Shown here piece after piece: positions 2,510 through 30,247 of a DNA stretch of 64,000 nucleotides. Location of the stretch: contig JBAVRP010000030.1 of NCBI GenBank assembly GCA_049695115.1, positions 905 through 64,904 of the forward strand, written 5' to 3'. Position 1 is the first letter of the stretch, and every line of letters begins with the position of its first letter. Source of the stretch: Burkholderiales bacterium (lineage in GTDB: Bacteria > Pseudomonadota > Gammaproteobacteria > Burkholderiales > JBEEJL01). A program made the translations under genes and the position numbers. Below the pieces are notes generated by a model that was not told where the DNA came from, searched no databases, and worked only from the letters and a program-made list of their open reading frames with translations.

Positions 2510-2551
2510 ATCAGATATTCGGTTCGATTGATCGCGCTACTGGCCCAGCCA

Positions 2552-2590
2552 TCGATAGGTGCCGATAGACCTCGATAGTCTTCGAAAGCC
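2552..2590. repeat. Two abutting inverted copies of the 14-150 iteron-like motif, 2 bp from the guaA stop
   Basis: The reverse complement of 2552-2570 is gtctatcggcacctatcga, 16/19 identical to copy 1. The reverse complement of 2572-2590 is ggctttcgaagactatcga, 15/19 identical to copy 3, including a 12-nt exact run cgaagactatcg. Confidence 0.65.
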
Positions 2591-2592
2591 CC

Positions 2593-4167: not shown

Positions 4168-4169
4168 TA

Positions 4170-4202
4170 GAAAAAATTAAGGGCGGTTAAAAGGCCGCCC
4201 TT
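4170..4202 (-). terminator. Hairpin plus T-tract between guaB and guaA (possible attenuator/terminator)
   Basis: The minus strand reads AAGGGCGG-ccttttaa-CCGCCCTT followed by AATTTTTTC. Confidence 0.5.
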
Positions 4203-4223
4203 ATTGGCTACAAAAAATTCATA

Positions 4224-5729
<1,506 letters not shown>

Positions 5730-5954
5730 TTACCGCAAATCGCTGAAAATCCATGATTTTTGGTTAAATTTGTGATGCATCCCATTGACTTATGAGGGAA
5801 TTATGTTAAGGTTCAACGTGTATTTTTATGCCCGGTCAACCAGCAAATGTTTGGAGAGTTGCTTGTGCAGATGCGGCTTACCCCTCAAAATCACTGACTA
5901 TTCTGATGAAAACGAGCCGTATCGGATTTTCAACTCATCCAAGAGGCAATATTC

Positions 5955-6437
5955 ATGCATAAATCCCTTATTCTGATTGCGCAGACTTTCATCTTTATAG
6001 CTCTACCCGTTGCTGTTTCTGCGGATATTTTCCAATGGAAAGACGATGACGGAAAAACCCAGTATTCCGACCAGCCTCCGTCGGACCGGCCAGCGCGTCT
6101 GGTAAAGACGGGTGTGACGGCCCCAACCGTTGCCGAAAAATCGGAGACTGCCTCCGAGGAGAAAACTGAGAAAAAAGGCCCGAAAAGCCTGGAAGAAAAA
6201 GCCCAGGAATCGCGCAAGCGCAAAATCGAAACCGAAAAAGCCGAGAGGGAAGCGGTGGGGAAAACAGCGGAAAAAAAAGCCAGCTGTACCCAGGCACGCG
6301 ACCAGATGAAGACGCTTGAAGAAGGCGGGCGCATTTATAAGCGGGATGAAAAAGGCGAGAAGAATTATCTGGACGACAAAGCTTTGGTCAAGGAAATGTC
6401 CGATGCCAAGGCCAATGTCAGCAAATATTGTAGTTAG
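5955..6437 (+). CDS. DUF4124-domain secreted protein
   Basis: 160 aa. Signal peptide followed by ADIFQWKDDDGKTQYSDQPP, the DUF4124 signature. Charged Lys/Glu-rich middle region. Confidence 0.75.
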   Translation: MHKSLILIAQTFIFIALPVAVSADIFQWKDDDGKTQYSDQPPSDRPARLVKTGVTAPTVAEKSETASEEKTEKKGPKSLEEKAQESRKRKIETEKAEREAVGKTAEKKASCTQARDQMKTLEEGGRIYKRDEKGEKNYLDDKALVKEMSDAKANVSKYCS

Positions 6438-6474: not shown

Positions 6475-8541
6475 ATGGACATGGCTCCTATGGCAACACA
6501 TGCGAAGGTTCTGCTGAGTTTGGTGTTCGCCTTGGGGGCTAACAGTGCATTTGCGCTTGGCTTGGGCGAAATCGATCTGCGCTCTTATCTAGGGCAGCCT
6601 CTTGACGCCAGGATCCCGGTCTTGGCTGGCGCAGACGAGCCGCTGGACGACAGTTGTTTCAAACTGGTCAATGGCGCCGTAACCAGCGACACCGGCCATT
6701 CAACGCCGGCGAAATTGTCGTTCCAGCAGGTCGGACGCAATAATATTCTACAAATTCGCACTGCCGCTTTCGTGCCGGAGCCGGCGGTGCGTATCCAGAT
6801 TGAAATCAGTTGCGGCAATGTGAGCCGGATTTCCCGCGAATACACTTTACTGCTGGATCCGCCGGAATACGCCGCTTCACGCATAGACCTGCCGTCGAAA
6901 CCGGTCGCGTCTGGCCAGCAAGCCACGACGATGACACAGCCTCAGTCCATCATTCAGGACGCGTCGAGCGGTGCGTCTGCGCAAATTTCCGCCGATGCCG
7001 GGCTTGCTCCTATTTATGGCGTGAACTCGACTGCGTCCGTGACATCAGCTGCCGGCCAAAGCGTTACTCCGCGTAAAATACGCAAAGCGCCGACTGAAAC
7101 TTCTGCTCCTGTCGCCAAAGCGCCGGCACGCATTAGGCCGCGCCCTTCCGCGCCAATACCACGGCCCGCGTATAAACCTTCTGCGGAAATAACGGCCCCG
7201 GTTGAAAAAACGCCTGCGCCCGCTGCTGTTGCGTCGATTGCAAAAGAAGCGCCCGGCGATGGCTTCCGTCTCAAATTGTCGTCGACAGAAATGAATCTCG
7301 CGCTGACAAAAACCGTTACCGAATCAGATCGCCAGCGTTTGCGGGCGCGGCAACTGCTGCTGGAAAATCAGTCCGACGACCAGACCGCAACCATACTGTC
7401 GATGAAAAACAGCATTGCGGAAATGGAAAAGCAATTGGCCGAGTTGCGCAGACAAATGGCGGCACAAAAAGGCGCCCCTGTGGGCAATGTAGTCGGCATG
7501 CCCGATTTGGCCGTTGCCGCGCCGGGTACGACGACGCCACCTGTCCCGACGGGAGCAGCGCCCGCCATTGAGCCTGCAAAATCCGCTGCAATCTCAATTC
7601 CCATTGCCAAACCTTTGCCGGCCAAACAAGAGCCCGGATTCTCCCTCGCCGATTGGACCAAGCCTGCTCTGGCTGCAAGTCTCGGTGCGTTGCTGCTCAT
7701 TTTCGGCGTCAATTACTGGCGTAACCGTGGTAGCAAGGAAACCGCTTACAAGGATTTATATGCTGATAGCACAAACAAGTTAAAAGCGCCGGTACCGGCG
7801 GTCGGGCAATTTGACGAAAACAAATTATTTGAAGACGGCCAAGATGACGATGACCTGGAAGAAATTCTGCTTCCCGAAGATGCCCAGGAAAATGCCAAAA
7901 CCAAGGCTCTCGATTTGCCCGTATCTGCTACGACCTTAAGCGACCCGCGCTACATGATCGATGTGCAGGCACCCGACTCATTCAAATTGGCTTACTTGCG
8001 CGAGCGCTTCCCGGAAATCGCGCAAGGTAGCTTGCGCCTGGACAAACCCGATTCACTGATACACGCCGCCCGCCTGTATTATCAAGAAGATAATAATTCG
8101 GCCAAGGCGGCGGAATTACTGGAATACGCTATTGGCGAATATCCCAACGAAGTCCGCCCCTGGCTGGCGGTGTTCGAAATTTACCGTCTGGAAAACCGTA
8201 CGGCTGATTTCGCTAATCTGGCGCAACGATTCAAACCAAAATTCGAACATGGTGGCTATTGGCCCAAAGTTCAGGCCATTGGCCGCCAGATCGATCCGCA
8301 AAATCCGCTGTATATCGCCGAAGAATTTCATGGGGATGAAAATGGTGATACCGCGATTTCGGCGGAGGCTGAAAACTGGCTTAACACCCCGCTTGATTTC
8401 ACCCAGGACTTGCTGGGCAATGAACTGCGCGACGCCCTCTTAAGTGGAGACGGCTCACCCTCCGCGGCCGGTGCTCCCGCTCAACACACTTTGAAACCGG
8501 GCGAATTGTCATTGTCGCCCGAAGGCAAAAAGCCGGTTTGA
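6475..8541 (+). CDS. FimV-like peptidoglycan-binding/pilus-assembly scaffold protein
   Basis: 688 aa. N-terminal FimV motif LGLGEIDLRSYLGQPLDARIPV, a Pro/Ala-rich linker, a coiled coil, one TM segment, an acidic tract and a C-terminal TPR-like FimV motif (AAELLEYAIGEYPNEVRPWLAVFEIY). Confidence 0.8.
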   Translation: MDMAPMATHAKVLLSLVFALGANSAFALGLGEIDLRSYLGQPLDARIPVLAGADEPLDDSCFKLVNGAVTSDTGHSTPAKLSFQQVGRNNILQIRTAAFVPEPAVRIQIEISCGNVSRISREYTLLLDPPEYAASRIDLPSKPVASGQQATTMTQPQSIIQDASSGASAQISADAGLAPIYGVNSTASVTSAAGQSVTPRKIRKAPTETSAPVAKAPARIRPRPSAPIPRPAYKPSAEITAPVEKTPAPAAVASIAKEAPGDGFRLKLSSTEMNLALTKTVTESDRQRLRARQLLLENQSDDQTATILSMKNSIAEMEKQLAELRRQMAAQKGAPVGNVVGMPDLAVAAPGTTTPPVPTGAAPAIEPAKSAAISIPIAKPLPAKQEPGFSLADWTKPALAASLGALLLIFGVNYWRNRGSKETAYKDLYADSTNKLKAPVPAVGQFDENKLFEDGQDDDDLEEILLPEDAQENAKTKALDLPVSATTLSDPRYMIDVQAPDSFKLAYLRERFPEIAQGSLRLDKPDSLIHAARLYYQEDNNSAKAAELLEYAIGEYPNEVRPWLAVFEIYRLENRTADFANLAQRFKPKFEHGGYWPKVQAIGRQIDPQNPLYIAEEFHGDENGDTAISAEAENWLNTPLDFTQDLLGNELRDALLSGDGSPSAAGAPAQHTLKPGELSLSPEGKKPV

Positions 8542-8548
8542 TCCTTTC

Positions 8549-10204
8549 ATGAATGCTTCACCTACTTCGTCTCTTCCGAGCGACCCGGTCGCCGCCCTCG
8601 CCCCTGTCAGCCTGTGGGTGGCCCGCCTAGGCAGTCTCGATGGTCCCAATGCACGCATCACCCTGCTGCAAGCTCTGCGTTCACTCAACCGTGGCAATCT
8701 CGCGCCCGATATTCTCACTACGCTGATGCAATTGGATGAGCAATGTCAATCCATTTTGGATAAGGCCGAGGCACGAATGAAAACCAGCGGCCACGACATC
8801 ATGGCGGAAAGTGCCCTGAGCCGCGACATGCAAAACATCTATCAGGAATTCGCCAACGCATACAAACGATTCATTGATGATTATCTCACCCAATCCGCCG
8901 ACAGCACTGCGGTGCCAGAGCGAATCAAGGAAATCACCGCCCGCAGCATTCACTGTCATTGCGGTATCGCAAGCTGGACCTTTTTCCTGAGCGAAGCCTT
9001 GCCGGAATCGTTCTGGCGGCAACTGCATTCTCTCTATTTGTTTGCCGAGCAGAACGCGTTCGAAACCAAAACACTGGCCTGGTACGACGGGTATCCCACC
9101 AGCGTCTCCAACGTTTACATGCGTACGCTGTTTCTCGACATGTTCAATACCGGCAATCTCACGCCGCAGCAGATTTCCATAGCCGACAAACGCCTGCAAG
9201 ATTGGTGCGGTGAGATGAGGCTGGAACGCGACTATGTCAATGGCAAACATCAACACTATGTCAACACGGCCGAACCCTCCGGCTTGCACAAAATTTCCGG
9301 CATTGAGCCGTTGCAAATGCCAAGCATGCGCTATCTGGATACGGGAAGGCTCGGCACCCATATCGCCCACGCAAAAATGGCCATCCGCGACGGCAACCCG
9401 GATACCAGCCTTGGATTTAACCTCAGCGAATTCCCGGTAGGCGAATATATTGATCTGCTGGATAAATTGGCGCGCGTTTGTCCGCCGCCAGGCGGCGAAG
9501 GCGCGCAGCGCCTGCACGACCGGGCACGCTCCAAAGCATTGTCGGTGGAATTGAAGTTCGGCATGGACCAGGTGATGGATGCCATTCGCAACCGCTCGAC
9601 GAATCCTTTCAGCAATATGAAAGCAGAGCATCTCACTCTCGACAGAAATGAAGAAGCTGATATCAAAATGTTCGGCTTTGTCACTGATCGCACGCGCCTG
9701 ACGAAAATCGATACAGCCGCGGCTCTTTCCACCGAGACCAGCTCGCCCTTCAGGCTGCACGACCACAGCATAACCGGCTTTGGCGTAACTACAGACAAAA
9801 ACACGTCCCATACGGTAGCGCTCGGCGCCATCGTCGCCATCAGGACCACGGGCGACCCGCAGTGGAAAGTGAGCATGGTAGTGCGCAAAGTCCCCCACAC
9901 CGACGATCATGTGTTAATAGGCATTGAACTCATATCGTCCACGCCCATCCCCGTCACGCTGGAGGTTTACGATCCGGATTTTCCCGTCGATCAATCGGAT
10001 AAATCAGTTGACGCCCTGTTTCTCCCCGCCCAACCCGGCAAAGCGGATAGCCTGTTGATCCGTACCGGACAATATTCATCCAACACGCGGCATAAACTTA
10101 TCACCAACAAAGGTGCTTTCATCATTCGCCTGAACCGCGTGATCAAACAAGGCAGCCATTGGGTGGCGGCGGGGCTTGAGGTAGTGTCGAAGCTGCAATC
10201 TTAA
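8549..10204 (+). CDS. hypothetical protein, possible degenerate PilZ-like C-terminal domain
   Basis: 551 aa, 8 bp downstream of the FimV-like gene. The C-terminal region contains DHSITG, which matches the (D/N)xSxxG half of the PilZ motif. No clean RxxxR is seen upstream. Confidence 0.5.
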   Translation: MNASPTSSLPSDPVAALAPVSLWVARLGSLDGPNARITLLQALRSLNRGNLAPDILTTLMQLDEQCQSILDKAEARMKTSGHDIMAESALSRDMQNIYQEFANAYKRFIDDYLTQSADSTAVPERIKEITARSIHCHCGIASWTFFLSEALPESFWRQLHSLYLFAEQNAFETKTLAWYDGYPTSVSNVYMRTLFLDMFNTGNLTPQQISIADKRLQDWCGEMRLERDYVNGKHQHYVNTAEPSGLHKISGIEPLQMPSMRYLDTGRLGTHIAHAKMAIRDGNPDTSLGFNLSEFPVGEYIDLLDKLARVCPPPGGEGAQRLHDRARSKALSVELKFGMDQVMDAIRNRSTNPFSNMKAEHLTLDRNEEADIKMFGFVTDRTRLTKIDTAAALSTETSSPFRLHDHSITGFGVTTDKNTSHTVALGAIVAIRTTGDPQWKVSMVVRKVPHTDDHVLIGIELISSTPIPVTLEVYDPDFPVDQSDKSVDALFLPAQPGKADSLLIRTGQYSSNTRHKLITNKGAFIIRLNRVIKQGSHWVAAGLEVVSKLQS

Positions 10205-10501
10205 TCAGGGCTGCCTGCGTTTTTTTGCTGAGACCCTCGTGCGACGCGCTTCTTTCGGGTCGGCAATTAGCGCCCGATAAATTTCCACCCTGTCGCCCTC
10301 ACGCAATCCTGTATCCAGGCTCGTAAGCTTGCCGAAAATACCTACGCGATTTTTGCGCAAATCTATTTCCGGAAATTCGTCCAACAACTTTGAAGCTATT
10401 ATCGCTTCGGCGACTGCCGATCCAGGCCTGAGTTGTACGTGCGCGATGATCTGTTTTTCCGGCAATGCATAACAGACTTCGATATTGATTACAGTGGTCA
10501 T
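10205..10501 (-). CDS. rnfH: RnfH family ubiquitin-fold protein (UPF0125)
   Basis: 98 aa (INIEVCYALPEKQ..., GDRVEIYRALIADPKEARR). ATGA overlap with the upstream ratA. Confidence 0.85.
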   Translation of the reverse strand: MTTVINIEVCYALPEKQIIAHVQLRPGSAVAEAIIASKLLDEFPEIDLRKNRVGIFGKLTSLDTGLREGDRVEIYRALIADPKEARRTRVSAKKRRQP

Positions 10502-10941
10502 GTGTCCACCGAACCCTGCAGTTCGTCGGCACGCTGCAAAAACGCTTCGACAAAAGTATTCGCTATGTAATGGAACACCGGTCCAAATAATTTCTCCAGC
10601 AAGCGATTCGAAAACTCATATTCAAGATCAAATTCAATCCGGCACGCTTCGGCAGACAGCGGCTTGAAATGCCAATGCCCCACCATGTGTTTGAACGGCC
10701 CGCTCTCCAACTCGATGTGCATCCACTCGTGCCCCACTTTGCGGTTGCGCGTAGCGAAGCTCTGCTTAATGCCGTGATAATCGATTTTAATCACGGCATG
10801 GGTCATCTCGTCGTTGCGGCCGACAACCTCGGTGCCGCCGCACCAGGGCAGGAATTCCGGATATTTTTCCACCGCATCCACTAGCCGAAACATGGTCTCC
10901 GCCGGGTGGGATACGAGCATGGATTTTTTTACTTGTGCCAT
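10498..10941 (-). CDS. ratA: SRPBCC-fold ribosome-association toxin RatA/YfjG family protein
   Basis: 147 aa (VEKYPEFLPWC...). Sits in the conserved smpB-divergent ratA-rnfH arrangement. Confidence 0.85.
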   Translation of the reverse strand: MAQVKKSMLVSHPAETMFRLVDAVEKYPEFLPWCGGTEVVGRNDEMTHAVIKIDYHGIKQSFATRNRKVGHEWMHIELESGPFKHMVGHWHFKPLSAEACRIEFDLEYEFSNRLLEKLFGPVFHYIANTFVEAFLQRADELQGSVDT

Positions 10942-11029: not shown

Positions 11030-11482
11030 ATGAGCATTGCCCAAAACAAAAAAGCCTTTCACGATTATTTCATCGAGGAAAAATACGAAGCCGGCATTGC
11101 GCTTGAAGGCTGGGAAGTCAAAGCCATCCGCGCGGCGCGGGCGCAACTCAAGGAAGCCTACGTCATCATCCGCAACGGCGAACTATTTATCATCGGCTGT
11201 CACATAAGCCCGTTGCTCACCGCTTCCACGCACATTACGCCCGACCCGGTGCGCACGCGCAAACTGCTGTTGCACAATGAAGAAATCGGCAAGCTGATCG
11301 TCAAAGTTGAGCGCGCCGGCTACACCATTGTCCCGCTCAATCTGCATTTCAAGAAAGGTCGCATCAAACTTGAAATCGGCCTCGCCAAGGGCAAAAAACA
11401 GCACGACAAACGCGATACCGAAAAAGATCGCGAGTGGCAGCGCGAAAAACAGCGGGTGATGAAGACCAATGCAAAAAGTTGA
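11030..11482 (+). CDS. smpB: SsrA-binding protein
   Basis: 150 aa. [25 protein letters not shown] and a basic C-terminal tail. Confidence 0.95.
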
Positions 11483-14798: not shown

Positions 14799-15320
14799 AT
14801 GCAAATTGATTGGGCGGTAGTAGCCGCAACACTTTTAGGACCGATCTTCGCCGTTTGGGCTTCCGAATGGAGGCAGGCTCGGCGTGCTAAGCATGAGCGT
14901 AAGGAATGGGTATTCCGCACTCTGATGAGTACTCGTGCAGCGAGACTTCGTATTGAGCATGTTTCCGCAATAAACCAAATCGACTTTGCCTTTCCTCGTA
15001 AATCCTGTGCAGATGTTCAAGATGCATGGGGTTTATACCGGCAGCAATTGAGACATCCTGACGCATTTTCAGAAGATAATGCTGTGAATAAAGCATGGCA
15101 AACAAAAGCAAACGAATTGCTTGCCAAACTATTACATAAAATGGCAATAGATTTGAAGATTCCATTTTCAGAAACTGAGATAACAGATAACTCTTATTAC
15201 CCTGACGCATATGTGAATGACGAACTTATGAACCAGGAAACAAAACATTTAGTCCTCCAAGTTCTCAGAGATGGACGGCCTATCAACATCAGGCCAATTG
15301 TTGATGGCAAGCAACCTTAA
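14799..15320 (+). CDS. hypothetical protein with N-terminal TM helix (orphan, AT-rich)
   Basis: 173 aa. N-terminus VVAATLLGPIFAVWASEW. No recognisable catalytic motif. Visibly AT-rich codon usage compared with its neighbours. Confidence 0.55.
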   Translation: MQIDWAVVAATLLGPIFAVWASEWRQARRAKHERKEWVFRTLMSTRAARLRIEHVSAINQIDFAFPRKSCADVQDAWGLYRQQLRHPDAFSEDNAVNKAWQTKANELLAKLLHKMAIDLKIPFSETEITDNSYYPDAYVNDELMNQETKHLVLQVLRDGRPINIRPIVDGKQP

Positions 15321-15398
15321 GAAGCGCAAGTTTTAAGGAGGGCAAAGAGCAGCTTGCCCACGCTACAAAAATTATTCTACTGACGAGCCAAACAAAGT

Positions 15399-15430
15399 AA
15401 AAACGGACTTCCTTGGAAGTCCGTTTTTTT
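15399..15430. terminator. Bidirectional rho-independent terminator
   Basis: AAAA-ACGGACTTC-cttg-GAAGTCCGT-TTTTTT, between convergent genes ending at 15320 (+) and 15455 (-). Confidence 0.85.
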
Positions 15431-15454
15431 GAATCGCCATCACGTATTCAATCA

Positions 15455-18400
15455 TCAATGCAACTTACGCCTGCGCAACTGTATCAACGCGCCCCCCGCT
15501 AATAATAGCAACATTGGATCAAACGGTGCATCACTACCAGCCAAGACACAACCTCCTCCACCACCTCCGCTAGACGAAGGCACAGGTGTCGGCGCAGGGG
15601 TGGGTGTTGGCGTTGGCGTTGGTGTTGGCGTTGGTGTTGGCGTTGGTGTTGGTGTTGGTGTTGGTGTTGGTGTTGGTGTTGGTGTTGGTGTTGGCGTTGG
15701 CGTTGGCGTTGGTGTTGGCGTTGGTGTCGGCGCAACAGTTGAAACTCCGCTCAAAGCTATTTGAACTGTTATTGGCTTTCCATCCGTCGTAATGGTCAAA
15801 ATACCAGACTGCGTTCCTAATGTAGTCGGCAAGAATGTTACATTGAAAGTCGCAGATGATCCGCGCGGAATCAGGCCGTTGGTCAAATTAGTTCTGAAAG
15901 CCTGTGCATTATCGATACTCAAACTGGTAATGGAGACATCGCTATTACCTGTATTGGATAAATTAAACTGAAGGGCTTTGCTACTCGATTGCACTACAGA
16001 GCCAAAATCAATTTGGGTAACATTTGGTGAAATGTTCCCAGTAAGTACGCGCGCACCTGCACGATGCATAATGGCTGCTGTTGCCGCATTCGGATTGAGT
16101 TCAATCGCCGTCGTACTGGTTGGGGCACCTGTTGTAGCGACTGGAATGCGGTAAGCTTTCCTACCTTTAGTAGCGTCCGGCGCAATAAGCGTTATGAAGT
16201 CATCATTACCCCAAAAGCTCGGGAGGCTACCGGTGTTCAACCCATTGCTTCCAAGATTAAACACACGATGAGGTGTTTGGTGCTCTAAGTCAAAAGAATA
16301 GACAGAATAATTTACATTGGCAGGGTCTCGAAAGTCATTGACGTCAAACGCAATGACGTTTCGGTTATTGGTCGCAAAGACTGGGTTGCCGATATCAAGT
16401 CCTGGGTCTTGGCTAGGGATCAAATATTGCAATTGACGCGTCAAAATATCTGATCGGCCGATGGTCCAATAACGGTAACCGCCACTTGTTGGCGTGCAAG
16501 CATTACTGGGTAACGATATGCAATTGAGGGCATCGAAAATGATATAGCGGCCAGCGTAATCAAAATTCAGCGAGTCAGCAAACAGTACTGTGTTCTGCGC
16601 AGCCGCTCCGCTCTGGTAGTTTTCCGATGTCAAGGTAATATCAAAATTACTTGCCCCCGAAGCATCGCTCAAATCCAGAACATGGATATGATTATCCGTA
16701 ACGCTAGTAGTAGTAAAAGCGAAATAACGAAAGTCTGGCGATATAGCGATACTGTTATATGCCCCAGTCGTTGTTATGGTATTTCTGCTAATGAGATTGA
16801 ATGTAGCAGGGTCAAACTCCGTCACTTGTATATTCCCAGCAGTATCAAGATACAAAATATCAGTCAACGTCTGGTTACTTGCGTTTTTATACGATATGAC
16901 TGCAGGTCGCTTATGTGCCACATTGAGAGCCACCGAGTTAGCAGGGCCTCTAGTATTTGTCGCGTCGTAACCTGCAAACGGCACCGCCATTTTTTGAACA
17001 TAGATGTCATACGATTCTGAAGAGGGTACAAACGGGATGATTGGTTTGGTCAGGTACACCATCAAGTCGCTACCGGCGGCAGAATCTGTTGATGTTGGCG
17101 TAGATGGTGGGTTGATATTGTCCGTAACTTCCACCAAGTCCCACGCCTTGGCCACAGCCACTTCGTCGCCAGGAAATAAATCTTTTGCTGCTTGAATCGT
17201 TGCGCGGCGCGCGTCAATGAATTGCGACGATTGCACAAGATAGGTCGTCAGAGCGCGGTAGTAAATTTTTTCGGTATGCGCGCGACCAATGCTTGTGCCG
17301 AGGCCTTCTGCAGTAAGCCCTTCTGCAATCAAATACGCTGCGCGATTCGGTATGCCACTATTGACGTGTACCCCACCATTATCTCCTGCTTTTGTCTGAG
17401 GCAATCGTTGATAATCACTCATTTTCGTCGGCTGCGGATCTTGACTAAGCCCAGGATTTGCCAAACTACGAAGGTAAAAAGGCGCTTTTTTTACGCAGCC
17501 GTCGCCAACTGTCCACTTTCTACCGTCCACAATGGCACCAAATACGTCAGCGAATGATTCGTTTAATGCCCCGCTCTGATTTTGGTAAATCAAACCTGCA
17601 GAATTCTGTATGACGCCATGAGTCATCTCATGGGCGGCCACGTCGAGACACGCAGCTAAATTGCTAAATGTTGTACCTCCGTCTCCATAAAACATATTTG
17701 TACCATCCCAATATGCCTGGTCTAGATTTTGTCCAACATGGATTACCGCTTGCAGCGTTCCATTTTTGTCATCAATACTATTTCTGCCGTGCGTATTTTT
17801 ATAGTAGTCATAGACTCTTCTCGTGTTATATGCGGCACTAACAGCCGCAGGATCCCATATGTTAAGTGAACTAGTAATCACGAAGTTAACTGGATCTAGA
17901 GTATTCCCCGCAGTCTCGATAAATGTATCGCTACGCGGATTGCCCGCTATCAACGAAGCAACCGGATCGTAGTTCACACCATCGGCAGCAGCACTTGGAG
18001 TAGTCGGATCAATCAAGTAGAACCCTCCATTGGCTGACCAAGCGGTAAAGCTGCGCTGCACTCCATTCAAATCGGTGCCACTTGCAGTTACTACTGCACT
18101 TTGAATATTATCAATGCGATCAATTACCTTGCCGGTTTTGGCATCGACAAAATGAATCCAGTTTTGGTTTAACGCGGGCTTGGTCACTACTTTATACGCC
18201 AACGTCATCGCACCCTTCTCGGCGGTATGGATGACTAATTCGCTAACGGGTGCTGGCATTTTATTCACGCCCAAACCGAGATCTTTGAACACGGCGCTCT
18301 GCGCGGCATCAATCGTAATACTGGGGCGAGTTTCGATTGCGCTCGGTGTCGGTTCGTGACGGCCTTGCAGCAAGGTGACTTCGCGTTGGCCGTCCATGTG

Positions 18401-19099
18401 TACCAGCAACTCTTTGCCGAATAACGGAATGCCCTTATAGGTTTGCTGAAAACGCAAATGGGTGTGGCCGTTGGCTTCAATATTTTCGCGCGTGAGTTTT
18501 ACTTCGGCACTGGGGTCGTCCATTTTCAACAGCGCGCGATTATCAGCGAGGAATTTTTTGGCCAGCGTGTGCGCGGTCTCCTTTTGTACAACAACTTCTT
18601 TTTTCGCTACAGAACTTTTAGGCAGCGAGAGATGGGAGATCGTGCCATTACGCTGGTCAAAATGCGCTTCGACTCCGCCGCTTGCTTGATGGGCGTTGTT
18701 CAGTGCGCGAACTTGCGCGTGTTGCTCGGCGTTGACGTGCGAAGCTGCGGCAGTAACTGTCGGCGCGGAGACAGTTTGTGTGCGCGTATATAACTCCCGC
18801 AATTTGCCGCCCAGATTATCCGCCTGCCGCAAAGATTCGACATGTGCGCGAGGCGCAACACGATTGGCTTTTTGTTGCCACCCAGTTTCGCGTGTAGAGC
18901 GGTATTTTGTCATTTCCGATAATTTCGCCGCATGTTGTTCAGCGGTTAACGAAAAACTTTTCTGTCGATTCGGTTGCGGCGTATCCGTTGCAGAAAATCC
19001 CGCGAGAAAAACTACTGAAGTAATCACTGCACCATTAAGTAATATTTTTGATTTGCGCGACTTATTCATTTCGTTCTCTCTCCGACTATTGAGTTTCAC
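15455..19099 (-). CDS. M4 (thermolysin-like) zinc metallopeptidase with FTP/PepSY propeptide, C-terminal propeller-like region, choice-of-anchor-D-like Ig domain, (TP)n linker and C-terminal sorting signal
   Basis: 1214 aa. Signal/TM segment at the N-terminus. FTP motif [20 protein letters not shown] as AAHEMTHGV, with the third zinc ligand in GALNESFAD. Tail reads [40 protein letters not shown]. Confidence 0.9.
15584..15733. repeat. Hexanucleotide tandem repeat (GGYGTT)n encoding the (TP)n linker of the M4 protease
   Basis: More than 20 near-identical tandem 6-bp units were read directly. They generate the artefactual (GV)n, (HQ)n and (LV)n ORFs in the other frames of the track. Confidence 0.9.
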
Positions 19100-19104
19100 A
19101 AGAT

Positions 19105-19719
19105 TTAATTTTGGCTGGGCGACGCTGAAATCTGATTCAACACCAAACCCGTTTCTGCATCAACAAACACCATGGTTCGACGCAAACTCTTCATAATGGT
19201 GATCATATGTACCAGACGTGGCGCGCCATCATGCATATAAACGTATAACTGGCTGTCCTGCGCTTTCCCACCTTCTCCCACCGCACTTGCCGCAGTATTA
19301 ATAGCGATGGTCTTAGCCAATTTCGGTTCGACCGAAATTTTTTGCGTGATTGGTTGAATACTGCCGGTGGTTGATGTCGCTACATTGTCAGCATTCAAAT
19401 GAACGAGGAGGAGTTGCCCCCACACCGGCACACCGTAATAACTCTGTTGAAAGCGAATGTGCTTTTGCCGCAAGTCATCGACGCGCTCACTTAAAAACGT
19501 CAATTCCTTGCAAGGATCGGTGACGCGATGCGCACCTGGGTTTGCTTTTAGATACGCTAGTGCTTGGCCTAAGTATTTAGCTTGATCCGGCTGTTGCGAA
19601 GTTTTGGCAGCGCAGAGATTGTCGGCGAGCAGGATAGAGTTGTCGGTGACACAGGCGGTTAAGATGGGCAACACAAACAACAGCGCAGGTCTGCGCCGAC
19701 GCGATTTTGATTTTTGCAT
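19105..19719 (-). CDS. lipoprotein consisting of a free-standing FTP + PepSY (M4 propeptide-like) module
   Basis: 204 aa. Lipobox LTAC after a basic signal peptide. [23 protein letters not shown] is paralogous to the protease FTP motif, and a PepSY-like C-terminus is present ([14 protein letters not shown]). Its stop is 5 bp upstream of the protease start. Confidence 0.75.
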
Positions 19720-24711: not shown

Positions 24712-25914
24712 ATGCTCAACGCTTATATATATTATGGATTGCGTTCGCCCATCGGCCGTCACGGCGGCAAGCTCGCCAGTGTGCGCCCGGATGATCTCGC
24801 CGCCGAAGTGATCAAAGCGCTGGTCGCGCGCTCGCAATTCAAAGCAGAACAAATCGAAGACGTGATACTCGGCTGCACCAACCAGGCCGGTGAAGACGCG
24901 CGCAACGTCGCGCGTCATGCCGCATTGCTGGCTGGATTGCCAACGACGGTCGGCGGCGCCACGGTCAATCGCTTGTGCGCCAGCGGATTGCAAGCCGTCA
25001 TCGACGCCGCGCGCGCCGTCAGCAGCAACGAAGGCGAACTGTATATCGCCGGCGGCACGGAGAGCATGAGCCGCGCGCCGTTCACCATGGCAAAGGCGGA
25101 ATCGGCCTACAGCCGCGAGATGAAAATTTTCGACACCACGATCGGCGCGCGCTTCCCCAATCCGAAAATTACCGCGCAGTACGGCAGCGATACCATGCCG
25201 GAAACTTCGGACAATGTAGCGAAACAATTCGATATTTCGCGTGTAGCCTCGGATATGTTCGCCGCCGCGTCGCAAGCGAAATATGCGGCAGCCAAAGCCA
25301 GCGGGTTTTTCGCTGTTGAAATACACCCCATCAGCGTTTCCACTGGCAAAAAAACGCCACCGCTGATAGTAAATGAAGACGAACATCCGCGCGCCGATTC
25401 TAACTTCGACATGTTACAAAAAATGAAGTCGTTGTTTGAAGGCGGCGTGACCACCGCAGGTAATGCATCGGGCATTAACGACGGCGCGGCGGCGCTATTC
25501 ATCGGTAACAAATCCGTCGGCGACAAAGCCGGCGTCAAACCCATAGTGAAAATATTGTCTGCAGCCTCAGCAGGCGTCGAACCACGCATTATGGGCGTCG
25601 GCCCGGCGTACGCGATCCCGAAAGCGCTGGAACGCGCCGGGCTTACACTGAAAGACATGGACATTATCGAAATAAACGAAGCCTTCGCCGCGCAAGTATT
25701 AGGCTGCCTGCATTTACTCAAAGTGGATTTCACCGACCAGCGCGTCAACCCCAACGGCGGTGCAATTGCCATCGGCCATCCGCTAGGCTGCTCCGGTGCT
25801 CGGTTAGCATTGACTGTGTCGCGCGAATTGCAACGACGCAATGGGAAATATGCTGTGATCAGTTTGTGTATTGGTGTTGGCCAGGGTTTGGCAATGGTGA
25901 TTGAGCGCGTTTAA
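24712..25914 (+). CDS. acetyl-CoA C-acyltransferase (thiolase)
   Basis: 400 aa. VNRLCASGLQA (active-site Cys), NPNGGAIAIGHPLGCSGARL, CIGVGQG. Confidence 0.93.
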   Translation: MLNAYIYYGLRSPIGRHGGKLASVRPDDLAAEVIKALVARSQFKAEQIEDVILGCTNQAGEDARNVARHAALLAGLPTTVGGATVNRLCASGLQAVIDAARAVSSNEGELYIAGGTESMSRAPFTMAKAESAYSREMKIFDTTIGARFPNPKITAQYGSDTMPETSDNVAKQFDISRVASDMFAAASQAKYAAAKASGFFAVEIHPISVSTGKKTPPLIVNEDEHPRADSNFDMLQKMKSLFEGGVTTAGNASGINDGAAALFIGNKSVGDKAGVKPIVKILSAASAGVEPRIMGVGPAYAIPKALERAGLTLKDMDIIEINEAFAAQVLGCLHLLKVDFTDQRVNPNGGAIAIGHPLGCSGARLALTVSRELQRRNGKYAVISLCIGVGQGLAMVIERV

Positions 25915-26031
25915 CTCGAAGGAAGAAAGTCCCTTCCCCTTGAAAGGGAGGGGACGCACTAAATGAATAGTAGAATGTGAAAAACCAATTTACAGCATTA
26001 CAAAAATTTTGAAATATTGCTAAATAAATTT

Positions 26032-27255
26032 ATGCCCTCTGCCCTCTCCCACCTCCGCGTCCTCGACCTCTCCCGCGTGCTCGCCGGTCCGTGGTCCTCG
26101 CAGATGCTCGCTGACATGGGTGCCGAGGTTATCAAGGTCGAGCGTCCCGGAACGGGCGACGACACGCGCGACTGGGGCCCGCCTTTCCTCAAAGATAAAA
26201 ACGGCAATGACACGCACGAATCAGCATATTTTCTCTCGGCCAATCGCGCAAAAAAATCTTTGACGCTGGATATTTCCAAACCGGAAGGCCAGGAAATTAT
26301 TCGCAGGCTCGCCGCAATTTCAGACATCGTGATCGAAAATTTCAAAGTCGATGGACTGAAGCACTACGGCCTTGATTACGCATCGCTGAAAAAAATTAAC
26401 CCGATACTGATTTTTTGTTCCATCACCGGCTTCGGCCAGACCGGGCCGTATGCGCAATATGCCGGTTACGACATCATGATCCAGGGCATGGGCGGCATGA
26501 TGAGCGTGACCGGCGAACGCGACGACAAACCCGGCGGCGGGCCTATGAGAGTCGGCGTGGCGCTGACGGACATCATGACCGGCATGTACGCGACGGTTGC
26601 CATACTCGGCGCGCTGGAATATCGCCACCGCAGCGGCGAAGGCCAATACATTGACCTCGCGCTGCTCGACACGCAGGTGGCGATGCTCGCCAACCTCTCA
26701 TCGAGCTATCTGGTGTCGGGGGAAATCCCGCAACGCATGGGTAACGCACATTCGACCATTGTCCCTTATCAGGCTTTTGAGTGCGCCGACGGTTATGTGA
26801 TTCTTGCCGTCGGCAACGATAGTCAGTTCGCGAAATTCTGCGACATCGCGCAAGCCACGGAAATTAAAAACGACCCGCGCTTCGCGACGAACAGTCAGCG
26901 GGTAAAACACCGCGACGTGCTGGTGCCGCTGCTGGAAAAAATCATCCGGCAACGCAAACGCGACGACTGGCTCGCCGCATTGGAAGCGGCCGGCGTGCCG
27001 TGCGGGCCGATCAACGATATGCAGCATGTGTTCGACAACCCGCAGGTAAAGCACCGCAATGTGCGGGTCGACGCGCCTCACCCGTTATCCGGAACCGCGC
27101 CGATGGTGGCGAACCCAATCAAATTTTCGGAGACGCCGATTGAATATCACCACAGCGCACCGACCTTAGGCCAACACACGGAAGTAATATTGCGTACACT
27201 ATTGGATATGCGCGATGACGAAATACAGGCTTTACGCGACAATAATATTATTTAA
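26032..27255 (+). CDS. CaiB/BaiF family (class III) CoA-transferase
   Basis: LSHLRVLDLSRVLAGP, IENFKVDGL and the GYDIMIQGMGG motifs. Start taken at ATG 26032; the track uses TTG 26017. Confidence 0.9.
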   Translation: MPSALSHLRVLDLSRVLAGPWSSQMLADMGAEVIKVERPGTGDDTRDWGPPFLKDKNGNDTHESAYFLSANRAKKSLTLDISKPEGQEIIRRLAAISDIVIENFKVDGLKHYGLDYASLKKINPILIFCSITGFGQTGPYAQYAGYDIMIQGMGGMMSVTGERDDKPGGGPMRVGVALTDIMTGMYATVAILGALEYRHRSGEGQYIDLALLDTQVAMLANLSSSYLVSGEIPQRMGNAHSTIVPYQAFECADGYVILAVGNDSQFAKFCDIAQATEIKNDPRFATNSQRVKHRDVLVPLLEKIIRQRKRDDWLAALEAAGVPCGPINDMQHVFDNPQVKHRNVRVDAPHPLSGTAPMVANPIKFSETPIEYHHSAPTLGQHTEVILRTLLDMRDDEIQALRDNNII

Positions 27256-27289
27256 TAAAATCAAATACTTATATTCTTAAAGGGAAAAC

Positions 27290-29443
27290 ATGAAAATCAA
27301 AACCATGTCACTCGCCATCGCAGCAGCCATTGGCATCGCTGGATGCGCATCGACAAAGCTGATGGTTGAAGAAGCCAGGCAATTTGAAGTTGTACCCTTG
27401 CAGTCATTTCAGACCAAAGTGATTTTCGAGAAAAATTACGATGGCATCAAGAATGATTTGCTCACCGGCGGTCAGGGTATCAGCGGCTTGAAAAAACCTG
27501 CGGCACCAGCCTACGCCGACCCGAAATTTCCCGACGCGGCTGAATTGCGCGTGGCGGCCATACACGCCAACTTCCGCGCACTGACCGACTCCACGCCTAA
27601 CGGCGGCTTCGGCACGTTGTACGGCCCGAATATTGATATCAGCGGTAAACCCACGCTCGGTGAAGGCTTGGTCGCGGGCGATGAATTCATCACCTACGCC
27701 GACGATGGCCTCGGCAAACAGAATGTCACGCTGATGGTGCAAGTGCCGGCGAAGTTTGATCCTAAAAACCCCTGTATCGTATCAGCCAGTTCGTCCGGTT
27801 CGCGCGGCATTTACGGCGCTATCGGCACGGCGGGTGAATGGGGCCTGAAACATAATTGTGCCGTGGCTTACACCGACAAAGGTACCGGCACCGGCGCGCA
27901 TGATGTGCAAAACGACATCGTGAACCTGATCGACGGCGAACGCGTCTCCACCTTGCGCGCGGGCGTGCAATCGAATTTCACCGCGCCCATGAACGTAGTG
28001 CAACAGGCCAAGTTCAAACAGGAAACGCCCAACCGTTTCGCTTTCAAGCATACCCACTCGAAACAAAACCCGGAAAAGGATTGGGGCAAAAACACGCTGG
28101 ACGCAATTGAATTTGCCTTCTATGTGCTGAACCAGAAAATCACAGATGGCCGCGCCGGCAAATATACGCCGCGCAATACCATCGTCATCGCGTCGAGCAT
28201 TTCCAATGGGGCAGCGGCGGCATTGCGCGGGGCAGAACAAGATACCAAGGGCTTGATTTCCGGTATCGCGGTTTCCGAGCCGCAGGTTTTCCCTGCTCTC
28301 GCGCAGCCGGTGACCATCACGCAAGGCGGTAAAACCATTTCAACACAAGGCCGCAGTTTGCTCGACTACTACACTTTGCAGAATTTATACCAGCCCTGCG
28401 CGAATTTAGCCGCGGACAACAAAACCGCGCCGTTCAACCTGACGCCGCCCAGCCTGATGCAAGGCCGCTGCGATTCGCTGAAAGAAAAAGGCCTGTTGAA
28501 ATCTTCAACACCGGCAGAGCAGGCGGCCGAAGCGCAAAAAATCATCAACGATTACGGTTTTCTGCCGGAGCAAAATCCGGTCGCGCCTTCGCATTATGCA
28601 TTCAACATACATCAATCCATCGTCGTCACTTATGCGAACTCGTATGGACGTTTCGGCGTCGAAGATAATCTTTGCGGCTTCAGTTTCGGCGCGACCGTTG
28701 CCGCCGGCAAGGATGTCGATCCGCTCACCATCGGCAACCTGCGTCCGGCTACCGGCACCGAAGCCATCTTCGCCACCAGCAGCGGCATCCCGCCCACAGG
28801 CGGCGTGAACCTGATTTACAACCTAGCCCAAGGCGGGCCAAGGGAAGATCGTTACGCCGTTTCGCCCTCGACCGGCCGCGCCGATTTGAATATCGACGGC
28901 GCAATTTGTTTGCGCAATCTCGCTACCGGCGTTGATGCGATAACGGGCGCGCCTTTGACCGGCGACGATCTGACCAAATATCAGCGCATCGCACAAGGCA
29001 TCAACGAAATAAAAGTGACCGGCAATCTGCGCGGCAAACCCACCATCATCGTCAACGGCCGTGCCGACGGCGTGGTGTCGCCGAATTTTTCCTCGCGCAG
29101 TTATTTTGCTGCCAATCAGCGCGCAGAAGGCACAGCAAGTAAATTGAAATATATCGAAGTCGCCAATGCGCAACACCTCGACGCCTTTAACGGATTCGCC
29201 GGATTCGACAGCCGCTTTGTTCCGCTGCATGTGTATTTCACCGGTGCGCTCGATGCAATGTGGAATCATTTGAAAAACGGCGCGCCCTTGCCTGCGAGCC
29301 AGGTGGTGCGCGCTGTGCCACGGCAAGTGGTGAGCGGCAAAGCGGTTGAACTGAATACATCAAACTTGCCTGCAATAGCCGCAACTGCGGGTAACGACGC
29401 TGCCATTTCTTTCGATGGTAATACTTTGCGCATCCCCGATTAA
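27290..29443 (+). CDS. probable D-(-)-3-hydroxybutyrate oligomer hydrolase family lipoprotein
   Basis: 717 aa. Lipobox IAGCAS. The size and motifs recalled for the 3HB-oligomer hydrolase family (SISNGAAAALRGAEQD) fit. The assignment is from memory, not a search. Confidence 0.6.
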   Translation: MKIKTMSLAIAAAIGIAGCASTKLMVEEARQFEVVPLQSFQTKVIFEKNYDGIKNDLLTGGQGISGLKKPAAPAYADPKFPDAAELRVAAIHANFRALTDSTPNGGFGTLYGPNIDISGKPTLGEGLVAGDEFITYADDGLGKQNVTLMVQVPAKFDPKNPCIVSASSSGSRGIYGAIGTAGEWGLKHNCAVAYTDKGTGTGAHDVQNDIVNLIDGERVSTLRAGVQSNFTAPMNVVQQAKFKQETPNRFAFKHTHSKQNPEKDWGKNTLDAIEFAFYVLNQKITDGRAGKYTPRNTIVIASSISNGAAAALRGAEQDTKGLISGIAVSEPQVFPALAQPVTITQGGKTISTQGRSLLDYYTLQNLYQPCANLAADNKTAPFNLTPPSLMQGRCDSLKEKGLLKSSTPAEQAAEAQKIINDYGFLPEQNPVAPSHYAFNIHQSIVVTYANSYGRFGVEDNLCGFSFGATVAAGKDVDPLTIGNLRPATGTEAIFATSSGIPPTGGVNLIYNLAQGGPREDRYAVSPSTGRADLNIDGAICLRNLATGVDAITGAPLTGDDLTKYQRIAQGINEIKVTGNLRGKPTIIVNGRADGVVSPNFSSRSYFAANQRAEGTASKLKYIEVANAQHLDAFNGFAGFDSRFVPLHVYFTGALDAMWNHLKNGAPLPASQVVRAVPRQVVSGKAVELNTSNLPAIAATAGNDAAISFDGNTLRIPD

Positions 29444-29461
29444 TTAATTGGAAAATAAGCC

Positions 29462-30247
29462 ATGGCCGCTACTCTCCTCGTCGAACGCCGAAACAATGTT
29501 TTGCTACTCACCATCAGCAATCCGGAAAAACGCAATGCCTTGTCGAACGAAATGTATGAAATTGGCACGCGGGAATTAAAACAGGCAGCGACAGACAACA
29601 CGATCGGCGCCGCCGTCATCACCGGCGCAGCCGGCAATTTTTGCAGTGGCGGCGATTTGACCCAAGTCGTCCAAGGCCGTTCGGCGCCAAAAGCCATTAC
29701 GGCGGAACGCATAGAACAACTGCACGCACTCATTAACGCGATCAAGCAATTTCCCAAGCCGGTTATCGCTGCAGTGGAAGGCAACGCAGCCGGCGCAGGA
29801 TTCTCGATTGTTCTGGCTTGCGACTTGATCGCGGCAGCGGAGGATGCGCGCTTCAGTATGGCCTATGTAAAAGTCGGGCTGAGCCCTGACGGGGGCGGCA
29901 CTGCGTCGCTGGCAATGAGTTTGCCGCGCCAGATTGCCAACGAACTGGCGATGGAGGGGGTAACGGTTTCCACGCCATCGCTGCATTCGCTGGGCGTTAT
30001 CAATCGCATGACCTCGCCGGGCCAGGCGCTGAACGAAGCCATGAATTGGGCACAGCAATTGGCGAAAGGCCCCCACGCCGCCATAGGCCGCATCAAGAAG
30101 CTGATGCACGCTGCCTATGGCGATGTATTCCAGGCGCAGCTCGACCGCGAGCGCGACAGTTTTGTAGAGAACCTGCATTCGCCCGATTGCGGCGACGGCA
30201 TCGCGGCGTTTTTGCAAAAACGCGCACCGGAGTTTAATAAGGCTTGA
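29462..30247 (+). CDS. enoyl-CoA hydratase/isomerase family protein
   Basis: 261 aa. Crotonase fold (FCSGGDL, AAVEGNAAGAGFS). Confidence 0.9.
   Translation: MAATLLVERRNNVLLLTISNPEKRNALSNEMYEIGTRELKQAATDNTIGAAVITGAAGNFCSGGDLTQVVQGRSAPKAITAERIEQLHALINAIKQFPKPVIAAVEGNAAGAGFSIVLACDLIAAAEDARFSMAYVKVGLSPDGGGTASLAMSLPRQIANELAMEGVTVSTPSLHSLGVINRMTSPGQALNEAMNWAQQLAKGPHAAIGRIKKLMHAAYGDVFQAQLDRERDSFVENLHSPDCGDGIAAFLQKRAPEFNKA

Follow-up and report, generated by a model that had tools for sequence, protein, structure and literature searches.

The only experimentally supported pathway model for a tripartite, Cys-type C-terminal sorting signal is that of MYXO-CTERM and its enzyme MrtX, in which a Sec-exported protein is anchored in the inner membrane, cleaved in a Cys-dependent manner, and passed by the T2SS to the surface (PMC11980579). 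MrtX performs this cleavage, and surface display depends on it (Guo, Haft and Wall, mBio 2025, PMC11980579). Modification of the Cys is hypothetical even in MYXO-CTERM (PMC11980579). A second signal, JDVT-CTERM, features an invariant Cys, a near-invariant DP about nine residues on, a Leu-rich helix, and an Arg cluster, according to the available text of its description (Haft 2023, bioRxiv 10.1101/2023.06.07.544157). The same text ties JDVT-CTERM to its predicted cognate protease MrtJ, a CPBP intramembrane enzyme, by gene neighborhood and phylogenetic profiling, gives its frequency as about once per genome with MrtJ at most 4 kb away in only 17 of 36 cases, and lists Janthinobacterium and Duganella as Betaproteobacteria. 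The role assigned to MrtJ rests on this in silico work and on the analogy with MrtX.

The locus described here lies in a window of 64 kb, the whole stretch of DNA that was analyzed, from a source labelled as a Burkholderiales metagenome-assembled genome (MAG). Its product is probably a surface-anchored pre-pro M4 protease that follows the JDVT-CTERM route. Since its tail passes the JDVT-CTERM model, the protein would add one more case to an established type of surface-anchored enzyme, and nothing in it overturns current understanding.

Gene and Domain Organization

The reading frame can be opened at two codons, of which ATG 19069, not GTG 19099, is probably the true start. This choice is made because GGAGAG precedes the ATG, because the MNK(S/P)RKSK N-termini of homologs match a start at this position, and because an identical gene of 1204 aa is called in the NCBI MAG GCA_049691695.1. 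In a scan of a genome collection, the best match is 65% identical. The reading frame and all of the motifs quoted in the preliminary description are present (Table 1). From the N-terminus, the domain order is a signal peptide, an FTP/PepSY propeptide, the M4 catalytic unit, a propeller of about six blades, an Ig-like domain, the (TP)22 linker, and a Gly6-Cys tail. The N-terminal segment is a putative Sec-type signal peptide.

Table 1. Features of the M4 protease locus. Positions refer to the 64-kb window and residues to the 1214-aa numbering, which is used throughout.
Feature	Position	Strand	Residues	Remarks
Longest ORF	15455..19099	(-)		1214 aa, start GTG 19099; ORF list
M4 metalloprotease CDS	15455..19069	(-)		1204 aa, probable start ATG 19069
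Signal peptide, putative, Sec-type	18989..19069	(-)		N-terminal, 27 residues; judged by eye
Propeptide	18119..18505	(-)	199-246; 261-327	FTP motif; PepSY-like region
M4 catalytic unit	17126..18085	(-)	339-498; 501-658	Peptidase_M4; Peptidase_M4_C (Pfam)
HEMTH			490-494	HExxH motif
NESFAD			513-518	NExxSD motif
13-residue segment			573-585	GGVHxNSGIPN motif
Beta-propeller, ~6 blades	16061..17068	(-)	~678-1013	AF2 and Foldseek
Ig-like domain	15746..16057	(-)	1015-1118	Choice-of-anchor D / HYDIN-CFA65-VesB type
IDFGSVV			1030-1036	Motif position
ILTITTDG			1100-1107	Motif position
Pro/Thr linker	15584..15736	(-)	1122-1172	
(TP)22	15596-15727	(-)	1125-1168	Uninterrupted
JDVT-CTERM sorting domain	15464..15565	(-)	1179-1212	NF033191
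GGGGGGC			1178-1184	
FDP			1193-1195	
RRRK			1209-1212	
Tail sequence				GGGGG, C1184, ten residues to 1194, 18 further residues, then LH and stop
Terminator-like hairpin	15399..15428	(-)		13-bp stem then T run, 27 bases past the stop codon; consensus scan, pattern match only
Upstream FTP-PepSY lipoprotein gene	19105..19719	(-)		204 aa, lipobox LTAC, free-standing FTP-PepSY module

Catalytic Unit

The protein is predicted from its motifs, Pfam matches, and fold to be a thermolysin/aureolysin-type M4 zinc endopeptidase. Peptidase_M4 (PF01447) is matched with 118.7 bits (cutoff 22.4, E 3.6e-34) and Peptidase_M4_C (PF02868) with 143.9 bits (cutoff 24.4, E 5.6e-42). From thermolysin we take the zinc and catalytic roles of HExxH, of the Glu ligand in NExxSD, and of the His of GGVHxNSGIPN to apply here. 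The AlphaFold2 (AF2) model of the catalytic domain has a pLDDT of 91.5, and aligns in structure with aureolysin (1bqb; TMt 0.91, 38% identity) and with thermolysin (TMt 0.89). An FTP-PepSY-M4 unit with HEMTH and NESFAD had been proposed at the outset. The FTP motif (Pfam E 4.5e-11), both M4 domains, and the catalytic motifs bear this out; however, the PepSY part stays below threshold in Pfam, at 18.6 bits against a cutoff of 24.

Propeller, Ig-like Domain and Linker

Peptidase_M4_C ends at residue 658 and is followed by 556 more residues, in agreement with the earlier estimate of about 550. Structure prediction of this region, as had been suggested, gives a beta-propeller, and the propeller and Ig-like domain together are modelled with a pLDDT of 92.3 and a pTM of 0.88. 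For the catalytic domain with the propeller the pTM is 0.82, and the two pTM values were taken to speak for a rigid head. The number of blades, about six, is taken from the strand pattern and not from coordinates. The propeller carries an AISPD blade motif and, in the alignment, an invariant Cys pair (C860 and C868, in FDALNC...C). This conserved pair and the VesB-named Ig-like domain that follows were counted as pointing to an extracytoplasmic location.

The propeller fold is recognized only through structure prediction and a family profile, because sequence searches of Pfam and of the PDB came back empty. Residues 640-1020 have no Pfam match at E<=1, PD40 (PF07676) included, and the single propeller sequence has no match in the PDB. 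In Foldseek the best PDB matches are TolB structures, namely 9a2l (E 1.2e-9, TMt 0.47) and 4r40_C (E 1.4e-11, TMt 0.50), and the family profile matches both TolB blades (E 5e-5 to 4e-3) and WD40 blades. A TolB/PD40-type propeller had been suspected from the sequence; the fold and the likeness to TolB are upheld, while the PD40 assignment lacks a Pfam match in this protein and has one in a homolog (P0029). No curated family covers the propeller, and there is no curated model for the M4-propeller family. A literature search yielded nothing relevant on such a family or on an FTP-PepSY lipoprotein partner, and a Foldseek search of the PDB with the model found no chain that spans both the M4 domain and the propeller. 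We infer that the propeller most likely binds or selects substrates.

The Ig-like domain had been likened to the choice-of-anchor-D family, and it does reach the cutoff of that model (NF012200), barely, with 46.6 bits against 45 over residues 1015-1106. It also matches the HYDIN/VesB Ig family PF22544 (45.6 bits, E 8.7e-12), and the family profile matches HYDIN chains. In the linker behind it, where more than 20 repeats had been reported, 22 TP dipeptides are counted. At the DNA level, TRF finds a 6-bp repeat of 20.8 copies with 91% matches at 15603-15727. The nearest homologs carry other linkers.

Some other M4 enzymes have C-terminal domains that are removed after export. This protein may likewise be a soluble secreted protease that loses its whole C-terminal extension (propeller, Ig-like domain, linker, and tail) by autoprocessing once exported. 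Cleavage could plausibly occur in the long, exposed (TP)22 linker, and some TraA and VesB are released to the medium in the MYXO-CTERM and GlyGly-CTERM systems (PMC11980579). However, release at the linker would follow sorting and would not substitute for it. Moreover, the propeller is kept with the M4 body in 494 representative clusters, nearly always at the same position, and in the model (pTM 0.82 for catalytic domain plus propeller) it appears to pack against the catalytic domain. Such conservation and packing argue that the propeller works within the mature enzyme and is not a disposable extension, and we regard a soluble end product as improbable.

The C-terminal Tail

The preliminary description had seen a tripartite tail with the architecture of a sorting signal at the C-terminus, and its Gly/Cys motif, hydrophobic helix, and Arg cluster are all present; the tail is of the Cys type. 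It had also called the tail unclassified and proposed a scan with models of C-terminal sorting domains. That scan assigns the tail to one of the models proposed, JDVT-CTERM (NF033191), with 37.3 bits against a cutoff of 27 (E 1.9e-9) over model positions 1-33 of 35. The label "unclassified" is therefore wrong, because the tail passes the cutoff of a curated model, and the tail is a predicted JDVT-CTERM sorting signal, an already described class. C1184 is the sole Cys in the tail, and D1194-P1195 lie at +10/+11 from it. After the DP come 13 residues and then RRRK, which ends two residues before the stop codon, and the helix is Leu-rich. Janthinobacterium and Duganella, two of the genera from which the class takes its name, belong to the Burkholderiales, so that the Burkholderiales source fits the named range of JDVT-CTERM.

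Among the homologs, the same protease body occurs with JDVT-type, Gly-run, CFI-box-like, or T9SS tails. This interchangeability argues for a tail that serves as an exchangeable module for surface sorting. At least four types of C-terminal tail on one body, across phyla, also make a natural test set for sorting signals. The Gly-run tails of homologs were considered as members of GlyGly-CTERM, but the best TIGR03501 match among them, 13.2 bits against 15.5, is below threshold, and for this reason they are named GlyGly-like here.

Cross-talk between models is another way to read the JDVT-CTERM match, with the tail then belonging to GlyGly-CTERM/rhombosortase, MYXO-CTERM/MrtX, or PEP-CTERM/exosortase. 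The six Gly ahead of the helix resemble GlyGly-CTERM, many homologs have a Gly-run tail without a Cys, and the tails of close homologs reach 18 bits on MYXO-CTERM. On the tail itself, however, MYXO-CTERM (TIGR03901) reaches no more than 11.3 bits, well short of its cutoff of 20, and neither GlyGly-CTERM (TIGR03501) nor PEP-CTERM (TIGR02595) matches the protein at E<=1, a result in which the filters of HMMER can drop weak matches. In addition, MYXO-CTERM is confined to Myxococcota (PMC11980579), whereas the source is labelled Burkholderiales, and a single Cys with a DP motif is what discriminates JDVT-CTERM in the available text of its description (bioRxiv 10.1101/2023.06.07.544157). Membership in another class is thus very improbable.

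Sorting Enzyme and Gene Neighborhood

No exosortase or rhombosortase had been seen in the window, and the only polytopic membrane ORFs in it are indeed of other kinds, namely TauE, an AI-2E transporter, an MFS transporter, and a P-type-ATPase-like protein. Motif and transmembrane scans, together with Pfam on all polytopic ORFs, found no CPBP protease or MrtJ in the 64 kb. The same is true of the flanks of homologs, where no CPBP protease or MrtJ lies within up to 10 kb in 45 fetched loci (including L002, L003, L005, and 40 genome loci) and no rhombosortase or exosortase adjoins any homolog. A search of a set of 5.8 billion proteins with a profile of JDVT tails returned only three short fragments at contig ends. 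Two of their contigs have no CPBP gene, and the 134-aa membrane ORF adjoining lacks an EExxxR motif.

The absence of a cognate CPBP protease from the window and from beside the homologs speaks for another reading, in which the tail is an unprocessed membrane anchor and the protease stays on the inner membrane, facing the periplasm. A hydrophobic helix and a basic cluster suffice for a stop-transfer anchor. However, the tail scores above the cutoff of a curated model in which the invariant Cys and the in-helix DP are represented, and 16 of the top 120 homologs retain the combination of Gly run, Cys, and D[P/F/Y/W]. The T9SS domains that stand in place of the tail in some homologs are surface-sorting domains, and a long stalk with a large propeller head suits surface display more than the periplasm. 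MrtJ is, moreover, not adjacent in about half of the known JDVT cases. A plain anchor had also been the expectation for a tail that recurs on no other protein of the genome and has no candidate sorting enzyme. Only one JDVT-type tail is found among all ORFs of the window; non-recurrence in the genome is not a refutation, because JDVT-CTERM proteins are typically one per proteome. On balance, a plain inner-membrane anchor is unlikely.

A recent insertion or island near smpB was considered as a separate matter. No tRNA or tmRNA gene is found in the window, and the gene order is syntenic with that of a related locus (L002), which argues against an insertion.

Proposed Route to the Cell Surface

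In the preferred reading, surface anchoring by the JDVT-CTERM route, the protein would be exported via Sec and would fold with the aid of its FTP/PepSY propeptide. The JDVT-CTERM helix would first hold it in the inner membrane, with RRRK in the cytoplasm. The single Cys after the Gly run would then be modified, probably with lipid by analogy with MYXO-CTERM/MrtX, and the helix would be removed by the CPBP-type glutamic intramembrane protease MrtJ, presumably encoded elsewhere in the genome. Transport by the T2SS would follow, and the modified C-terminus would keep the protein tethered at its destination. There the (TP)22 stalk and the Ig-like domain may hold the propeller and catalytic head off the membrane.

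The Upstream Lipoprotein

The most interesting loose end of the locus is a conserved FTP-PepSY lipoprotein gene directly upstream of the protease gene. Its product has an FTP match in Pfam (E 5.1e-10) and shares 31% identity with residues 170-319 of the protease over 154 aa (E 1e-16). This similarity marks it, at the level of sequence, as a paralog of the propeptide of the protease itself. A separate upstream copy is found in about 20 of 45 related loci, and most copies have lipobox-like N-termini.

It is conceivable, if rather doubtful, that the conserved gene pair forms a new kind of protease and safety-catch module. Here, the tethered propeptide copy would act in trans as a chaperone or inhibitor, the M4-specific propeller would serve as a substrate gate, and the interchangeable tail would be the surface anchor. 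The lipoprotein may in that case keep the anchored protease silent until the cell surface is reached. In a weaker variant, some enzyme that is not an adjacent MrtJ would process the JDVT-type tails of this M4 family. Neither the M4-restricted propeller nor the conserved upstream lipoprotein is annotated, and the two could explain what holds anchored proteases of this type in check and how substrates are chosen.

Comparison with Known Systems

The catalytic domain has all of the catalytic motifs of thermolysin, aureolysin, and bacillolysin, and is 33-38% identical to these M4 core enzymes with a TM-score of about 0.9. However, the matched M4 chains are of about 300 residues and correspond to the catalytic part only (TMq <=0.42). 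The M36 fungalysins also combine a metalloprotease body and an FTP propeptide with tails that are swapped by lineage, and their models are rhombosortase-dependent (NF038111), myxosortase-dependent (NF038112), or T9SS-dependent (NF038113). These enzymes belong to M36 and not to M4, and their models match the present protein weakly, in the propeptide or the tail only.

VesB of Vibrio cholerae, a client of GlyGly-CTERM, rhombosortase, and the T2SS, offers a similar assembly of a protease, the Ig domain named after it, and a tripartite tail, with surface retention and partial release. Unlike the present protein, VesB is a serine protease, its signal has no Cys, the enzyme that cleaves this signal is of the rhomboid family, and no GlyGly-CTERM match is found here. 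MYXO-CTERM/MrtX shares the tripartite, Cys-type logic of the signal and the CPBP superfamily of the enzyme. It differs in its low score on this tail (11.3 bits), its confinement to Myxococcota, its dozens of clients per genome, and its motif, which is often GCGC.

The closest system is JDVT-CTERM/MrtJ (NF033191, NF033192), with which the tail shares a score above the NF033191 cutoff, a single Cys, a DP about ten residues on, a Leu-rich helix, and an Arg cluster. The hallmark of that system is a two-gene neighborhood of MrtJ and its client, whereas none is seen here or beside the homologs, and M4-propeller cargo is not mentioned in the available text of Haft 2023 (bioRxiv 10.1101/2023.06.07.544157). 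A large M4 protease therefore adds a clear enzymatic cargo to the rare JDVT-CTERM/MrtJ system, in a family whose clients and sorting enzyme are not neighbors.

The protease and its propeller

An open reading frame of 1214 amino acids is present on the minus strand at 15455..19099, and it contains every string quoted from it in the preliminary description. Translation probably starts at ATG 19069, giving 1204 residues. This codon is preceded by a Shine-Dalgarno-like GGAGAG, agrees with the N-termini of the closest homologues (MNK(S/P)RKSK), and begins the 1204-aa gene called on the contig of NCBI MAG GCA_049691695.1.

Features of the M4 protease (residues, 1214-aa numbering), its neighbourhood and related loci
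Feature	Position	Source or detail
FTP	residues 199-246	Pfam
PepSY	residues 261-327	Pfam, sub-threshold
Peptidase_M4	residues 339-498	Pfam
HEMTH	residues 490-494	M4 protease
Peptidase_M4_C	residues 501-658	Pfam
NESFAD	residues 513-518	M4 protease
Choice-of-anchor D	residues 1015-1106	NCBIfam, 46.6 bits vs cutoff 45
HYDIN/CFA65/VesB-like Ig domain	residues 1026-1118	Pfam
IDFGSVV	residues 1030-1036	M4 protease
ILTITTDG	residues 1100-1107	M4 protease
C-terminal tail		[40 protein letters not shown]
Predicted lipoprotein gene, 204 aa	19105-19719 (-)	lipobox LTAC
Upstream FTP-PepSY gene, other loci	L002 9355-9969; L005 9338-9970	also L006, L007, L009, L010, others
guaA, guaB, FimV-like gene, smpB		window neighbourhood
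Short-chain dehydrogenases, acyl-CoA dehydrogenase, thiolase, CoA-transferase, 3HB-oligomer hydrolase, others		window neighbourhood

For residues ~660-1014, sequence searches gave no Pfam hit, even at E<=1, and no PDB entry. An AlphaFold2 model of residues 640-1130, based on 97 aligned homologues, is confident and all-beta (pLDDT 92.3, pTM 0.88). Its best PDB match in Foldseek is E. coli TolB (E 1.2e-9), with sialidase, N2O-reductase and WD40 propellers ranking next, and the family profile reaches TolB and WD40 blades at the sequence level. The strand pattern of the predicted model suggests about six blades. Together with the domain matches, these results bear out at the fold level the earlier guesses of a propeller and an Ig-like, choice-of-anchor-D module. 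An invariant propeller Cys pair (FDALNC...C) fits an extracytoplasmic protein. In a second model (residues 330-1014; pLDDT 91.5, pTM 0.82), the catalytic part resembles aureolysin (TMt 0.91, 38% identity) and thermolysin (TMt 0.89), and the propeller part fits TolB structures (4r40_C, E 1.4e-11). Among the PDB matches to this model, no single chain spans both parts.

The C-terminal tail and sorting

Residues 1179-1212 match the JDVT-CTERM sorting signal NF033191 (37.3 bits, cutoff 27, E 1.9e-9). The tail has the lone Cys, DP motif, Leu-rich helix and Arg cluster of this class, with DP at +10/+11 from the Cys; in the class, DP lies about nine residues downstream of a single Cys, and there is usually one such protein per proteome (Haft 2023, bioRxiv 10.1101/2023.06.07.544157). 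Judged by its sequence, the tail thus belongs to a described class. Since the class is published, the novelty of the "unclassified" signal is lost; the preliminary description stands as observation and in its fold assignments, and fails on the tail being unclassified. MYXO-CTERM scores 11.3 bits (cutoff 20), and neither GlyGly-CTERM nor PEP-CTERM is among the NCBIfam tail matches. That the tail belongs to another sorting class is highly improbable.

The predicted JDVT-CTERM sorting enzyme is MrtJ (NF033192), a CPBP-type glutamic intramembrane protease encoded <=4 kb from the JDVT-CTERM gene in 17/36 non-redundant cases (bioRxiv 10.1101/2023.06.07.544157). For the MYXO-CTERM/MrtX pair, Cys-dependent cleavage and an MrtX requirement for surface display are experimentally verified, and the working model runs from Sec export through inner-membrane anchoring, Cys lipidation and CPBP cleavage to T2SS transport (PMC11980579). 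The protease is likely an M4 endopeptidase that reaches the surface by the JDVT-CTERM/MrtJ route and stays tethered there; its propeller would be a substrate-binding head, and the stalk and Ig domain would be spacers. The domain identities come from this analysis, and the processing steps are inferred from the literature.

CPBP motifs are absent from the four real polytopic membrane proteins of the 64-kb window (TauE, AI-2E transporter, MFS transporter, P-type-ATPase-like ORF), and no second tripartite tail occurs among its ORFs. No PF02517 gene was found at homologue loci L002, L003 and L005 (flank up to 10 kb) or at 40 homologue loci from species-representative genomes. An unprocessed inner-membrane anchor is an unlikely reading of a tail passing the JDVT-CTERM cutoff.

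Between the Ig domain and the tail are 22 unbroken TP dipeptides (residues 1125-1168, window 15596-15727), whose coding DNA at 15603-15727 is an almost perfect microsatellite with a 6-bp unit (20.8 copies, 91% matches). The closest homologues, P0001 and P0002, have short Pro/Gly linkers in its place, so stalk length probably varies by slippage. Cleavage of this linker would set free a soluble enzyme, a distinctly unlikely outcome beside sorting to a surface tether.

The upstream lipoprotein and the locus

The lipoprotein gene stops 5 bases short of GTG 19099, the first possible protease start, and 35 short of ATG 19069. It encodes a free-standing FTP-PepSY module, listed at NCBI as a hypothetical protein (Burkholderiales MAG), that is a paralogue of the protease propeptide (31% identity, E 1e-16) and may work in trans as a chaperone or an inhibitor. 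About 20 of the 45 related loci, across phyla, have a separate upstream copy, usually with a lipobox.

A strong hairpin is predicted 3' of the protease stop codon. Within 14799-19719, GC is 0.435 (DUF6680), 0.483 (M4) and 0.491 (FTP lipoprotein), all lower than the mean of 0.532 over the window and the 0.572 of the flanking acyl-CoA dehydrogenase gene. Despite this low GC, upstream synteny is common to L002, a 71%-identical homologue locus; both have the order GST, hydrolase, SDR, FTP gene, M4 gene.

The remaining window genes serve chromosomal housekeeping and lipid metabolism. Immediately 3' of a FimV-N-domain protein gene (6475-8541) is a 551-aa ORF (8549-10204, +) that no Pfam family matches at E<=1e-5. 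smpB is at 11030-11482 (+), but an ARAGORN scan of the whole 64-kb window detected neither tRNA nor tmRNA genes. Genes for a thiolase, a family III CoA-transferase, an enoyl-CoA hydratase and a 3-hydroxybutyrate-oligomer hydrolase (PF10605, E 2e-269) cluster at 24712-30247, which points to a role in using polyhydroxybutyrate or fatty acids, separate from the protease.

The M4-propeller family and its tails

Metagenomes are rich in full-length homologues (817 at E<=1e-5), and all but one of the 40 genome loci are from MAGs of Gammaproteobacteria, Desulfobacterota, Nitrospirota and others. A search of 1.84 billion proteins with only the propeller as query gave 494 representative clusters. Because nearly all are 1000-1400-aa proteins matched at ~640-1000, the propeller is an appendage essentially specific to M4. 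This propeller and the propeptide-like lipoprotein partner are two unannotated features of modest interest.

In L029, a contig of a delta-proteobacterial MAG, tandem M4-propeller paralogues (2445-6323 and 6488-10585) have C-termini that are not tripartite. Members from Desulfobacterota have the ending GGGGCFIG..., with no helix. A tail of the form ...PP(I/V)A(D/E)FI...YG(I/V)KYP-helix-RRKK, found in P0018, P0020, P0021, P0025, P0027, P0030, P0041 and P0042 and at L015, L017 and L018, scores 35.8 bits against NF041770 CFI-box-CTERM, under the cutoff of 40.

Among the top 120 homologues, 16 have JDVT-type tails (Cys plus D[P/F/Y/W]); of those scanned, P0001, P0002 and P0057 are above cutoff and five more reach 17.8-22.4 bits. 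Gly-run tails without Cys occur in 22 (GlyGly-CTERM match sub-threshold only), CFI-box-like or other helix-plus-basic tails in about 10, and T9SS-type C-terminal domains in 43. Curated M36 families are split by sorting system, and the tails of the M4-propeller family show a like pattern.
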